Origin: a virus
Lineage: Duplodnaviria; Caudoviricetes
DNA: 24,110 bases
Virus record (IMG/VR): IMGVR_UViG_3300021197_000579
Span: 1 to 24,110 of that record
Strand: one strand, 5' to 3'
Shown: in pieces, positions 3,348-10,242 of the stretch
Layout: every line of letters begins with the position of its first letter
How positions within the stretch are numbered: position 1 is the stretch's first letter
Translations under genes and position numbers: made by a program
Notes under the pieces: generated by a model
The model's input: only the letters and a program-made list of their open reading frames with translations
Databases searched by the model: none
Told to the model about the DNA's origin: nothing

Positions 3348-3810
3348 CCCTGGAATTACAGGGGGCATGACTTTCATACAAGATAACGAAACACACGTTG
3401 TTTGTGAGAGAGTTCCTACCGTTACATATAAAATAAATGGTAAGAACAAAAAGTTTTTAGATTTAATAAAAATAGTTAACAGATTAGATTTATATAAACC
3501 TTACAAAGTATTTATAGAAAAACAACAGTCTATGCCTAAACAAGGTGTTGCTAGTACATTTAAAACTGGTTTTAACTACGGAATTTACATTGGTTCGTTT
3601 GTTGCTTTGGGATTAGATTATAAAGAAGTAATACCAAGGCAATGGAAAAAAGACTTGGGGCTTAAAACATCTAGCAAAGATGAGGCAAGGGAAAAAGCTA
3701 GTGAGCTAATACCCTATGCCTCAGATAGTTGGAAACTTAAATGCGAAGATGGCGTAGCTGAATCAGCCCTTATAGCCTACTGGGGATTGTATCACTCCCA
3801 AACTCCGTAA
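3328..3810 (+). CDS. RuvC-like Holliday junction resolvase
   Basis: GIDPG, FIEKQ, F..G..YG, P..WKK and DGVAESALIA catalytic pattern. Confidence 0.85.
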   Translation: MIICGIDPGITGGMTFIQDNETHVVCERVPTVTYKINGKNKKFLDLIKIVNRLDLYKPYKVFIEKQQSMPKQGVASTFKTGFNYGIYIGSFVALGLDYKEVIPRQWKKDLGLKTSSKDEAREKASELIPYASDSWKLKCEDGVAESALIAYWGLYHSQTP

Positions 3811-5381
3811 GGGTCGAAGGTAGGGCTTTCGGTTAAGTGATTACAGAGCTTAGAAACTCTGTCTTTTTTAGACATATTAGGATAATCAATAGTAAATAGT
3901 TTTGTTTCTAATTGTCCGATTTGTTCTTTGGAGTATTTGTTGAGCCATTTTTCGTCTGGTCTAAACCATAAGGTTGGATTTGAATCGTCACCGATTGCTT
4001 TCTTGAGCGTCTCATCTTGAAGGTCATGTCTTGATATGCCTGTAAGACAACACGCAACAAATAAAGTATTGAGTTCTTCAGTGCTGAGAGCAAGGCAGTA
4101 ATGTAAAGGAGCTGTGCCATCATTGTTGTAAGCTTCAATAGCATTGTCACGATGCTTTGTAATAATTTGCTCGTAATTAGTAGTAAGGTTGTCATTGGGT
4201 TCACTCCCTGATGGAAAGTTTTTTTGGTTGTCTGCGTATATATGACCTACTCTGTTGATGTTTTCGTATGCACCATATCCTAGTTTTCTATGGCATAAAA
4301 GAGCCATCATAAGAGGGACGTTTTTAACATCCATCATACTACACTTAACTTCTTCTGCATAATAACCATTGAGTATATCACGTTGAGGCTTACTCATAAC
4401 TAATGGCGTAAGCTCTTCTGCTTCTTCCATAGATTCTTTGATTTGTTCGTTGTTATCAAATTCTTCTCTAACAACGTAGTCTTCAGCATTTAACATATAT
4501 CTGTATGTGCTGTAGGTAATAACCTTAATCATTTGGCTTTTATCATAATCAGAATCATTCCAAACTTTTTGAAGGTTTTTTGTTTCTGGATTATCAAATG
4601 CATATTCGTCTACCAAAAGTATTACATGATGATAGCCTTCTGTATAAAAGTCTTCTTTCATTTTGTTTAGATGAGCCATTTGCATACGCTCAAAGGCTTC
4701 AAAGTTTGTTATATATTCATTTTCTCCAAACAAATCTTTTTCAATAGCAAGTTCATCTATGTTTGATTTATCTACTTTGAATAAAGCAGAATCTAAATCA
4801 ATCTTTGATGATGTCATAAAGCGTTTTGCTGTATCTGCTGTGTAGTTTTCGTAATCATCTAGGTATTTGTCTTGTCTTTCTGTAGTACCTAGAGTCAAAG
4901 CTTTTGCTACACCAAGATTAAATTCATAGTTACGAAACTTTTCTTTAGCAAGTACAGATAGCTCTGATAAAGATATGCGTTGCTTTACCCAGTTTTCTGT
5001 TTGACCAAACCTTAATCCAACAGATGAGTAATCTTCTCCACCATCAGCTACTAAAGCTTGTATGACATCGCATTCATCAAGTGGGTGCATATCTTCACGC
5101 ATCATATTAGCATGCAAACCGACTTCCTTGTCATTTGAATCTAAGACGATGCAATTAACGGGGGTTGCTTTGTCTTTGTAAATTTTGTTCAAAGCATCAA
5201 GTCTTCTGTTGCCGTCAATAACGTTGAACCCTCTGCCGTTTTTAACAACGACCAAGTTGTGCAATAAGCCTTTAGATTTGATTGAGGCAGCAAGGCTGTC
5301 CAAAGATGAGTCTGAGGCTTTTACCTTACGCACATTGTCTGGCGAGTGCTTTAACTCTTTGAGTGGTATTTGATTTTGCAT
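3792..5381 (-). CDS. Long ParB/Srx-family protein resembling plasmid/ICE leading-region ParB-like proteins
   Basis: N-terminal ParB domain (SPDNVRK, LAASIKSKGLLHNLVV, IDGNRRLDAL, NMMREDMHP), an HTH segment and a C-terminal WFRP...LNKYSKEQI motif. Confidence 0.85.
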   Translation of the reverse strand: MQNQIPLKELKHSPDNVRKVKASDSSLDSLAASIKSKGLLHNLVVVKNGRGFNVIDGNRRLDALNKIYKDKATPVNCIVLDSNDKEVGLHANMMREDMHPLDECDVIQALVADGGEDYSSVGLRFGQTENWVKQRISLSELSVLAKEKFRNYEFNLGVAKALTLGTTERQDKYLDDYENYTADTAKRFMTSSKIDLDSALFKVDKSNIDELAIEKDLFGENEYITNFEAFERMQMAHLNKMKEDFYTEGYHHVILLVDEYAFDNPETKNLQKVWNDSDYDKSQMIKVITYSTYRYMLNAEDYVVREEFDNNEQIKESMEEAEELTPLVMSKPQRDILNGYYAEEVKCSMMDVKNVPLMMALLCHRKLGYGAYENINRVGHIYADNQKNFPSGSEPNDNLTTNYEQIITKHRDNAIEAYNNDGTAPLHYCLALSTEELNTLFVACCLTGISRHDLQDETLKKAIGDDSNPTLWFRPDEKWLNKYSKEQIGQLETKLFTIDYPNMSKKDRVSKLCNHLTESPTFDPYGVWE

Positions 5382-7614: not shown

Positions 7615-8226
7615 TTACTCTGCGTATGAAGAATCAGCAGGCATCTCTACAAGACCTGACTCTCTGGCAAAGTCCCAGAAGTCATTCTTGTGTGCCTCGT
7701 ATGTCTCAACTGTAATCTGACCCTTCTTGGCTTGCATACGCTTGACCTTGGGTAAATCTTTGAGCGTAGTGTACTGCCCAAAGTTTACACCGCACTGTGA
7801 TATAACAGTAGGTCGTGTTGTGTATCTGCAAGTCTTGAATGCTTGATTGAGTATCCAATACTGCTGACGCAATCTATCGATATCTCTGTCAATGTCATCA
7901 ATCTTGTTCTGGGTAATCTCAATACCAACATCTGCTAGTACAGCATCTCTGCGTTCCCACTTCTTACGAGTGCCTGCAGCCGCTACTGTATCCATCATCT
8001 TCTCAAACATGCGTGTTACTTGGTCTGCAAGCTTGGCCTGTATGATAACGTCATTACCATCGTCAAAGTGATTGACAAGCTCCATCAAGATAGCATGAAG
8101 ACGTTTGTTCCAAACTGACTGATAGTCATCCTTGGGTAGCTTGTCCTTGCGAAGCTGTTTTGATATAGCTTTCATCACTTCTTCTGTTAGTTCCTGTGCT
8201 TCGTATTTAGTCTGTGTATTCTGCAT
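7615..8226 (-). CDS. Hypothetical helical/coiled-coil early protein (203 aa)
   Basis: Start reassigned to ATG 8226 (MQNTQ) with GGAGG RBS; followed by a terminator. Confidence 0.85.
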   Translation of the reverse strand: MQNTQTKYEAQELTEEVMKAISKQLRKDKLPKDDYQSVWNKRLHAILMELVNHFDDGNDVIIQAKLADQVTRMFEKMMDTVAAAGTRKKWERRDAVLADVGIEITQNKIDDIDRDIDRLRQQYWILNQAFKTCRYTTRPTVISQCGVNFGQYTTLKDLPKVKRMQAKKGQITVETYEAHKNDFWDFARESGLVEMPADSSYAE

Positions 8227-8398
8227 TGCTAACCTCCATAAGCTCGATAATCTGATTGTTATAATAAAGAAGTTCTTTAATATGAAATTCTGTAAGTCTT
8301 TCTGAAACAGTTGCGCTTCTAAGACCTTTTGCATGAACCTCTCTTGCTTGAATCAAGAAATGTAATTTCTGTTCTATTGTTCTGTATTCATCAGTCAT
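8207..8398 (-). CDS. Hypothetical protein (63 aa)
   Basis: Fills the operon; GGAG RBS; overlaps neighbours. Confidence 0.65.
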   Translation of the reverse strand: MTDEYRTIEQKLHFLIQAREVHAKGLRSATVSERLTEFHIKELLYYNNQIIELMEVSNAEYTD

Positions 8399-8588
8399 CT
8401 AAGTTCTCCCCTACAAGTACTTTGCACAGTTCTTCTTGGTATAAATTCCAACACTTAGGAAGTGTTTTGTCTAATATATCAAATGCAGTATCCATATCAT
8501 TTTCATCAACTGCATCTATAATTCTAGATGCCCAAAACCTAATAGTCTGTTTATGTGAATGCACTCTATTTTCATCAGTAAATATCAT
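8391..8588 (-). CDS. Hypothetical protein (65 aa)
   Basis: Start reassigned to ATG 8588 within the repeated leader CGTAAAGGAGAATCAAATG. Confidence 0.75.
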   Translation of the reverse strand: MIFTDENRVHSHKQTIRFWASRIIDAVDENDMDTAFDILDKTLPKCWNLYQEELCKVLVGENLDD

Positions 8589-8599
8589 TTGATTCTCCT

Positions 8600-8836
8600 T
8601 TACGCTAAGTGTGATAATTTTGGTTGGTAAGTACAATGTTTACCAAAGTATCTATAGTAATCTTCGTATGCTGATTTAATATCTTTATTGTAAAGACGCT
8701 TAATCATAAGAGAAAGTTCTTCTCTTTTTTTGTGCGAAGATGACCTTTCAATTCTTTGGCAAATCCAATCATATCTCTCCCACAACCAAATTATGTTATC
8801 TAAATAAAATTGTTCTTGTTTTTGAAACTCATTCAT
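8600..8836 (-). CDS. Hypothetical protein (78 aa)
   Basis: Leader AACGCAAAGGAGAATGAAATG. Confidence 0.75.
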   Translation of the reverse strand: MNEFQKQEQFYLDNIIWLWERYDWICQRIERSSSHKKREELSLMIKRLYNKDIKSAYEDYYRYFGKHCTYQPKLSHLA

Positions 8837-8856
8837 TTCATTCTCCTTTGCGTTAA

Positions 8857-8894: not shown

Positions 8895-9065
8895 TTACAT
8901 ATAACTATTAGAACCCTTGAGGTCTAAAAGTTGATTCACTCTTTTCAAGTCTCCCGACTCTAATGCTTGACGAATCTCAAACTCTTCATGTGATTCGTAT
9001 AGGTCAAGAACATCATCAATGGTTAGAGGTTCTACAATTTCAAATAGTTCTAGTTGATTCGACAT
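8895..9065 (-). CDS. First early gene, acidic hypothetical protein (56 aa)
   Basis: Start reassigned to ATG 9065 (MSNQLELFEIVEP...) after AACGTAAAGGAGAATCAA. Confidence 0.75.
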   Translation of the reverse strand: MSNQLELFEIVEPLTIDDVLDLYESHEEFEIRQALESGDLKRVNQLLDLKGSNSYM

Positions 9066-9137
9066 TTGATTCTCCTTTACGTTAGTTATGTCGCAAACAC
9101 AGACAAGATTTGTTCTGCGTCTATTGTCCACCCACCC

Positions 9138-9693
9138 ACACGATGAAAGGCAATAGTCAAGTGCAGAAGGGATGACCTTCTATCGGGAATCCCCTTGTCA
9201 AAAAAATTAGCTTTACACCCCTGACGAATACTTAATCACAAACGACAATGAGGAAGGGGTGTTCATGTCAAGCGCAAGCTTGACTCAATTATAATAATTA
9301 TTTTGATTCAATCTTTACTTTTGCCGTTTGCCTCGCAATTTATCGTGTAACCTGCAAGGATAATTGAACGACGTAGGGCCAATCATGTGTGTGTGTTCCA
9401 AAGTTGACGAACCCGCATTCGGGTGACAATCACGCCCCTCGATGGGGTGTGAGGGTCAAGTAAGTCGAGGACACGTCCCTTTGCTAGGAAGCTACAAAGC
9501 TAGGAAGAAAGTATGTAACGGAGCGATAGTAGACCGCAAGGGCTACAGCAGAGTGGAATGCTTTGTTCCGTATCTGCAAAGGAAACGGCTCACAGACTTA
9601 CACAACTAAATTATCATACGAGCAAGGCGAGACATGATTCAATAAGGTTCGTAAGAACAAGTTTGTCCACTTGACAAACTAGCGGAGTGCTAA
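9138..9693 (+). ncRNA. Large structured non-coding element (folded ssDNA promoter/origin or large ncRNA)
   Basis: More than 15 mutually compatible helices on the + strand, including long-range 9138-47/9339-48, 9198-209/9295-306, 9215-22/9255-62, 9381-88/9632-39, 9460-66/9595-601, 9478-84/9576-82 and 9518-26/9563-71; GCAA and GTAA tetraloops; no ORF of 60 aa or more. Confidence 0.7.
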
Positions 9694-9749
9694 CGAAGCC
9701 ACAAAAGAAAACAAGAGTTGAATACAAACAATGGGTTAGTTAAGGTGAC

Positions 9750-9780
9750 TTGACAACGAACGACACACCATGTGTATACT
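9750..9780 (+). promoter_or_regulatory. Candidate sigma70 promoter for terS/late operon with 19-bp spacer
   Basis: TTGACA (9750-55), N19, TATACT (9775-80); dyad ACACA-CCA-TGTGT in the spacer. Confidence 0.55.
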
Positions 9781-9807: not shown

Positions 9808-10242
9808 ATGACGAAAGCAAACGAAAGCCAACAAGAGAAGTATAGAGGTGGTTTAGTTCCAATGGATGACATTGAGAAACATGCACCGATAGTGAAAGCA
9901 AGTAATGAAAAGATAACTGAAGCACAACAGGAATTAGTGCATGTTATCTTGCATGATGGTTGCAACCCAACAGAAGCATCAAAGAGACTAGGACGCAATA
10001 AGGCTTGGGCATTTAATACGCTTAGAAAACAACATGTTATCGAGTATAGACAACAGTTAGCTATGATGACTTTGGGATGGGACGCAACACAAGCGATGGC
10101 AACGATGAGAGAACTGTTGAATAGTAAGTCACAGTATGTAAGATTAGAAGCCGCTAGAGACTTGATGGACAGAGCAGGATTCAGACAAGACGTTAAGACA
10201 ACAACGAATACAGCAGTGCAGATTAATTTTAACGTAGACTGA
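9808..10242 (+). CDS. terS: Terminase small subunit (HTH)
   Basis: HTH (ITEAQQELV...PTEASKRLG) and RLEAARDLMDRAG...INFN C-terminus typical of TerS; upstream of TerL; start reassigned to ATG 9808. Confidence 0.75.
   Translation: MTKANESQQEKYRGGLVPMDDIEKHAPIVKASNEKITEAQQELVHVILHDGCNPTEASKRLGRNKAWAFNTLRKQHVIEYRQQLAMMTLGWDATQAMATMRELLNSKSQYVRLEAARDLMDRAGFRQDVKTTTNTAVQINFNVD

Follow-up and report, generated by a model that had tools for sequence, protein, structure and literature searches.

The early/late junction of the 24,110-nt stretch of tailed-phage DNA analysed here (IMG/VR record IMGVR_UViG_3300021197_000579; hereafter, the window) carries on its + strand a long fold-back that, in our models, is predicted to act as an Frpo-like single-strand promoter of the σ70 type, serving the first early genes and active only while the + strand is single-stranded (probability about 0.56). 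Conservation of the structure, strand bias, promoter motifs, position, and the absence of a conserved duplex alternative together favour a single-strand promoter. The original prediction, a fold-dependent σ70 promoter directed at the early genes, is supported, in particular by covariation of the two arms, by A at −11 and mostly T at −7, by a bias toward G·T pairs, and by the lack of a conserved duplex early promoter.

The fold and its genomic setting

The window genome is of podovirus type. From 9808 rightward it carries terS, terL, and the genes for portal, capsid, tail, and internal virion proteins; from 9065 leftward lie small genes together with those for SSB, a ParB-like protein, a RecE-like exonuclease, and Sak. 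Judged by terL, its nearest isolate is Pelagibacter phage EXVC031P Hodr (58%), a cultured relative on Pelagibacter HTCC1062; scans of host genomes gave no usable prophage tying the window phage to a host. The ParB-like protein (3792–5381) has 529 aa, and no ParA or integrase was found in the phage. A 1008-aa protein lies near T7 gp15-like clusters in the Atlas (0.87; a lead only), and a 1335-aa internal virion protein of a relative (L083 12790–16794) has an N-terminal lysozyme-like domain of the Pesticin family. The elements of the junction, in window coordinates, are as follows:

8895–9065, − strand: first early gene; its product, acidic and 56 aa long, belongs to a conserved unnamed family with an E-x3-A-x3-GD-x2-R core
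9072–9076, − strand: RBS AGGAG of the first early gene, inside a motif repeated before other early genes (from sequence)
9097–9129, + strand: closing (downstream) stem, template arm
9130–9137, + strand: template strand of the bubble, C-rich (unpaired 0.76–0.99)
9138–9153, + strand: fork stem and spacer helix, template arm (covariation)
9155–9160, − strand: −35 hexamer TTGACT (template strand AGTCAA on +)
9161–9313, + strand: upstream part with side hairpins, A/T-tract stem, and exchangeable apical hairpins; length varies among relatives
9314–9319, + strand: non-template −35 TTTACT, paired with 9155–9160 save one C·T mismatch (p 0.79–0.93)
9328–9338, + strand: side hairpin extruded from the non-template spacer
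9339–9348, + strand: fork stem, non-template arm (covariation)
9348–9357, + strand: −10 hexamer TAACCT (9348–9353) and non-template bubble strand
9358–9396, + strand: closing stem, non-template arm, with a near-invariant (TG)n run at its end (9386–9396)
9398–9750, + strand: second structured zone, built as a mosaic of hairpin modules (DNA z −3.99, RNA z −4.49)
9750–9780, + strand: duplex late promoter TTGACA-19-TATACT before terS, conserved in relatives
9808–10242, + strand: terminase small subunit (terS), the anchor used to find relatives

Folding the + strand as DNA, a check proposed with the original prediction, gives a structure with z −4.25, better than all 200 shuffles. By these models, the fold is genuine and larger than first described, occupying 9097–9394; the closing stem reaches 9394, beyond the limits of 9090–9360 first given for the element. 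The prediction comprises a closing stem and a fork stem, separated by an 8/9-nt bubble, and a −35 that is paired. In particular, the bubble comprises 8 template and 9 non-template bases and is closed by pairing of 9097–9129 with 9358–9394, and the modelled overall shape is that of an open promoter: upstream duplex, fork at −12/−11, bubble, and downstream duplex.

Much of the local geometry originally described holds. Specifically, TTGACT is present on the minus strand at 9160–9155, the spacer on the template is 16 nt, T9348 of TAACCT pairs with A9138 (p 0.93), and the bases following the stem are unpaired (9349–9357, 0.71–0.99). The minus strand also lacks a duplex −10, as had been claimed, because the template strand of the bubble is C-rich; the hexamer downstream of TTGACT is the G-rich TGGGTG. 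Two of the proposed pairings fail. TTGCCG (9321–9326) had been set opposite the −35 template, a register with a probability of ≤0.002; both the DNA fold and covariation place TTTACT (9314–9319) opposite AGTCAA, and GGCAA (9149–9153) pairs with 9321–9325. Forcing the earlier spacer pairs costs 4.7 kcal/mol. A leader hairpin assigned to 9096–9121 is absent from the + strand (p < 0.01), since that stretch pairs with 9358–9394 as the closing stem.

If the fold is a promoter, the left arm would be the template and would give the −35 and the spacer, and the right arm would give the non-template −35 and the −10, with the −12 base closing the stem and bases −11 to −7 held off the template. Holoenzyme would bind this structure and start leftward at 9125–9127, a site predicted from the position of the −10. 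The 30-bp closing stem would act as the downstream duplex, such that RNA polymerase would make a displaced mRNA and not only a primer, and the A/T-tract stem (9195–9209/9295–9311) is probably UP-element-like. In the window, neither arm appears from its sequence to be a duplex promoter, because the left arm has no −10 and the right arm's own duplex spacing, set by the hairpin at 9328–9338, is 28 nt. Once the duplex is restored, the early promoter would be switched off and the duplex late promoter would remain.

The first early gene starts at 9065 (56 aa) and not at GTG 9131. The product of the window gene matched no Pfam or PHROG family. Its own family consists of conserved acidic proteins of 54–73 aa: 10/41 have an N-terminal motif resembling the clamp-binding motif, 14/41 have an acidic-aromatic C-terminal tail similar to the one on the SSB encoded in the window, and one has a weak UVR-motif match (E 0.18). 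As a lead, the first gene product may touch the host replisome. The motif around the RBS is repeated at 8586–8610, 8834–8855, and 9063–9084, before several early genes, and TACGTT (9078–9083) was ruled out as a + strand −10, the motif recurring before other early RBSs. One sequencing run contains a joint (8398–8832) that skips genes near these repeats, which may serve gene exchange.

Conservation of fold and promoter motifs among relatives

A terS search gathered 80 loci, and a second terS search gave nearly the same loci. The element precedes the first early gene in 68/80; the other 12 contigs stop short of it, no more than 742 nt from terS. Removal of near-duplicates left 43 loci, and dropping L066, which has the same element as L067, gave 42 copies of a branched element of 220–480 nt. 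Covariation was scored on 14 alignable copies, picked by similarity to the window, using a consensus structure from RNAalifold on the same 14-sequence alignment, which favours that structure somewhat. Covariation of the two arms, a check put forward with the original prediction, is evident: 97.1% of 417 cells are paired, double-sided changes occur at 16/30 pairs, and the score of 0.449 (versus 0.177 in shuffled alignments) is reached by 0/500 shuffles. Slid controls score ≤0.164, with paired cells down to 19–55%. Specifically, double-sided changes occur at 8/10 pairs of the fork stem (98.6% of cells paired) and at 4/5 pairs of the spacer helix, and the side hairpin at 9328–9338 has 100% of cells paired and double changes at 2/4 pairs.

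A strand-neutral alignment of the arms of the 42 copies shows 93 G·T versus 12 A·C on the + strand, with 37 elements favouring the + strand, 0 the opposite strand, and 5 ties, and the + strand folds more stably than the minus strand in 41/42. The bias and the better folding indicate selection for folding on a single strand, the one that serves as template for the early genes. The right arm ends in the near-invariant (TG)n run and the left arm varies through wobble pairs; an 8-nt TG run is present in 38/42 right arms and its complement in 2/42 left arms. This run may mark the 3′ end of the fold as a signal recognised by its sequence, with a putative Chi-like or RecA-loading role. A whole-genome repeat scan ranked the junctions of Hodr, G003, and G005 first and not those of the window and G001, so simple repeat scans miss branched forms. 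A blastn search of the element against phage isolates gave no match.

The promoter motifs recur across the 42 copies, and folding restores a −35 and a −10 spaced as in a promoter, which is also the case in the Frpo/ssi ssDNA promoters. The template −35 is TTGAC plus any base in 30 copies, TGGACT in 3, TTGCAA in 2, and TTGAGC in 1, with a degenerate or mis-set anchor in 6. The template spacer is 16–19 nt in 34/42 (overall range 14–20), and the fork lies 41–64 nt from the RBS in 42/42. The stem-base hexamer is CATCAT in 21 copies, CACAAT in 4, CAAACT in 1, and TA-type in 16. The TAnnnT expected at the stem base is therefore kept in part: −11 is A (fixed by the pattern used for the −10 picks) and −7 is T in 32/42, but −12 is C in 26/42. 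Loss of the −7T is common in alphaproteobacterial promoters, according to the accessible part of PMC7703639. Pattern-free −10 callers recovered the site in part only, 15/40 by one caller and with several wrong picks by another. Mean pairing to the left arm is 0.70 at −12 and 0.14–0.21 at −11 to −7 across the 42 copies; for copies of the CATCAT subtype, the models place the −10 inside a local hairpin.

An out-of-sample search with the right-arm pattern alone, in which the −35 was not used, gave 153 matches, 111 with terS downstream (122 had at least 700 nt there). Among the 27 new non-redundant matches, 15 were of phage type; their left arms carry TTGAC[TA] in 9, TTGCA[AC] in 2, a misplaced match in 1, and no match in 3, and a duplex −10 was found in none.

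As judged from sequence, there is no conserved duplex early promoter: nAnnnT occurs 16–18 nt after the left-arm −35 in 0/42 copies, and minus-strand duplex promoter matches between the RBS and terS occur in 13/42 versus 14.9 by chance. On the right arm, 38 copies could be called: the third base of the non-template −35 is T 22 times and G 12 times, and the arm's own spacing is 26–148 nt through insertions in 21/38 and 15–20 nt in 17/38. Both the T-for-G −35 and the lengthened spacing seem tailored to prevent right-arm activity in duplex; in the 17/38 with 15–20-nt spacing, a weak rightward duplex promoter is possible. The late promoter has the form TTGACA-19-TATA[AC]T in 38/42, with a 17-nt spacer in Hodr; a near-consensus promoter with a 19-nt spacer suggests control by topology or an activator.

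In the Hodr-type clade, 16/27 non-redundant early/late junctions, that of the cultured Hodr among them, also bear long fold-backs, unrelated in sequence. These fold-backs often mirror the RBS; in the near-perfect examples of Hodr (L081 12036–12363) and L169-L216, the mirrored part takes in the RBS of the first early gene and in some cases its start codon as well. An automatic promoter test was passed by 7/16, 3 of which also have a duplex −10. The fold of L174 yields TTGACA-17-TACATT across a template bulge of 5 nt, and its right-arm spacing is 31 nt. No such fold-back was found in HTVC010P or Skadi-1. IMG/VR stretches matching the Hodr terL query number an estimated ~2,400.

Alternative readings and the source of single-stranded DNA

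The same fold, recognised by polymerase, could have as its main job the priming of minus-strand synthesis on a displaced + strand, as a single-strand origin with early mRNA secondary. We consider this unlikely. A long closing stem favours displacement of the RNA over priming by RNA polymerase, the early operon would be left without a conserved promoter, and the distance to the RBS is fixed. Cumulative GC skew turns at the element, as an origin would have it, but the turn, at the early/late junction, coincides with the coding-strand switch. Priming is favoured by the clamp-like and SSB-tail-like motifs in the first gene product of some relatives and by the gene content: no RNA or DNA polymerase, primase, helicase, or integrase family was found among 38 window proteins and 50 + 27 queries mostly from the relatives G001 and G003 (part of the ORFs, not every one), both treated as complete; G001 (34 kb) looks complete from its overlapping contig ends. 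Frpo is likewise reported to prime (PMC12672017, accessible part). Among the proteins scanned (window, G001, G003), several early ones lack an assignment, and no rolling-circle Rep family was found; relaxase and transfer families were also absent from the proteins scanned, the gene set being that of a podovirus. An early protein of ~203–239 aa (window 7615–8334), present in G001 and G003 and without a family, is a candidate for a missing replication function; the 239-aa protein had no Atlas match.

A slightly less probable reading is that the fold belongs to a + strand RNA, acting as a phage 6S-like decoy for the host σ70 holoenzyme or forming one segment of a longer structured RNA that extends to 9750. 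As described in the accessible part of PMC8876501, 6S RNA (RF00013) has a closing stem, a central bubble with a −10-like 3′ strand, and a −35-like apical arm, with its 5′ strand as template; the phage fold is likewise a rod with a closing stem and central bubble, and its apical stem and 3′-bubble hairpin also fit this layout. The + strand folds well as RNA (z −4.88), the G·T bias suits RNA equally, and the neighbouring zone 9398–9750 folds too, with the + strand more stable in 17/21; the hairpin modules of this zone are shuffled among relatives. Unlike 6S RNA, the element is 220–480 nt, branched, and carries a literal TTGAC hexamer, which on the template arm suggests readout of DNA bases. An Rfam search of the element gave nothing above chance and no 6S match, and no conserved + strand promoter (2/42 at 9/12) or terminator (U-tract 2/42) flanks it. 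An RNA would also leave the early genes without a promoter, against a fork–RBS distance of 41–64 nt in every copy.

RNA-type tetraloops are few: among 74 hairpins of the window's clade, 3 have GNRA and 0 UNCG loops. A loop test of DNA versus RNA types favoured neither in this clade, where none of the 74 is a GNA triloop with a 5-bp stem, and gave 7 versus 1 in Hodr-type fold-backs and 3 versus 4 in a coding control. By eye, short GNA hairpins follow 10/16 TA-type −10s. The consensus side hairpin is recovered better with DNA energies (0.73) than with RNA energies (0.53), and the energy models mildly favour DNA over RNA. In the RNA run X20 (share 0.05), the only full-length records lie at 9325–9473 and 9501–9651 (151 nt each); they look like about one fragment, cross the element's 3′ end, and are too little to weigh for the RNA reading or to gauge expression.

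Far less probable is that the promoter is one arm of a cruciform extruded from a supercoiled circular duplex, a route that had been part of the original prediction. Extrusion would make a single-stranded phase unnecessary, and the Hodr-type repeats are closer to perfect. By a rough estimate, however, it costs ~+305 kcal/mol (duplex −394, two folds −89) versus 94–204 gained by relaxation, and the minus-strand fold is the weaker in 41/42. Back-to-back duplex promoters arising by inverted duplication, with arms kept alike by conversion or inversion and no folded function, would fit the 15–20-nt right-arm spacing in 17/38 and the mirrored RBS of the Hodr-type repeats, but are scarcely credible given the excess of G·T (93) over A·C (12), the conserved bubble and covarying side hairpin, the lack of a left-arm −10 in 42/42, and the absence of strand-changing joints in four sequencing runs.

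Returning to the single-strand promoter, the element shows no drop in depth in DNA runs (depth taken per contig, from libraries of unrecorded type), and one viral-fraction contig runs across the junction, so virion DNA seems to be duplex there. With a cruciform unlikely and virion DNA seemingly duplex, exposure in the cell, at entry or during replication, is left. Our guess is that the + strand would be bared at the first-entering genome end by 5′-to-3′ resection or unwinding, because the element lies 0.4–0.7 kb from terS and the 3′ end of the + strand is on that side; displacement during replication would be an alternative source. Contig ends did not reveal a genome terminus: 14/80 end ≤1 kb upstream of terS versus 4 ≤1 kb downstream, and the rate is equally high further upstream. 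Raw-read runs X21 and X22 showed no start pile-up among 12 and 9 reads. Contigs of two different phages, L037 and L050, share their first base, which lies in the late promoter spacer 50 nt ahead of terS; this common start may be chance or a terminus. The fuller scenario, to which we give somewhat less than even odds, is that a large clade of tailed dsDNA marine phages opens infection via an obligatory single-stranded step, in which the first-entering 0.7 kb of the + strand is bared, folds into a host σ70 promoter, drives production of a first protein that interacts with the replisome, and falls silent once the duplex is restored.

Relation to known systems and meaning

Early transcription from single-stranded hairpin templates is established in the tailed phage N4, where it is carried out by an injected virion RNA polymerase; in contrast, the 34-kb genomes show no polymerase of their own among the proteins scanned, and the element has a host-type −35 and −10. 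In the M13/f1 minus origin and in ssoA/ssoU, folded ssDNA is read by σ70 holoenzyme, in elements without their own primase. By analogy, the phage element would also be folded ssDNA for σ70 holoenzyme, with a primase putatively lacking, but it differs from the sso origins in its long closing stem, in the fixed RBS downstream, and in that no rolling-circle Rep was found.

The closest parallels are Frpo1/Frpo2 of the F plasmid, ssi of ColIb-P9, and the class 2/3 ssDNA promoters of pESBL, which, as set out in the accessible parts of PMC9849209, PMC11541004, and PMC12672017, are long imperfect fold-backs that rebuild −35 and −10 for host RNA polymerase, precede first-expressed small genes with SSB in the operon, and are silent in duplex. 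The phage element likewise folds back, rebuilds −35 and −10, and precedes the first small genes, with SSB in the operon. Unlike them, it resides in a tailed phage with terminase and portal, lacks conjugative ssDNA transfer and a leading region, and is present in one copy per genome, at the early/late junction, with predicted activity. A blastn search (E 0.1) of the element against 72,556 plasmid records gave no match, to Frpo/ssi or otherwise. The element would thus work like the Frpo/pESBL promoters, yet appears to be no member of that group, having neither sequence similarity nor conjugative context.

The literature covered, mainly open-access and in part, contains no account of a tailed phage with a 6S mimic or with an ssDNA promoter used by the host polymerase. 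HTVC010P-type phages are described as lacking polymerases, with no such element mentioned in the accessible parts of PMC8477408 and PMC10504331; the accessible part of PMC12753301 concerns other phage types.

The known setting of single-strand promoters for host RNA polymerase is conjugative plasmids and replicons of the ssDNA or rolling-circle kind. Among abundant marine tailed phages, one family likely carries a fold-back promoter of ~300 bases that is absent from the double helix, and likely starts infection via a single-stranded step. If true, this would reveal an unrecognised single-stranded stage, at entry or replication, in terminase-packaged dsDNA phages; it would explain the timing of genes in polymerase-less podoviruses; and it would mean that their early-to-late switch is set by strandedness, as in conjugative plasmids.
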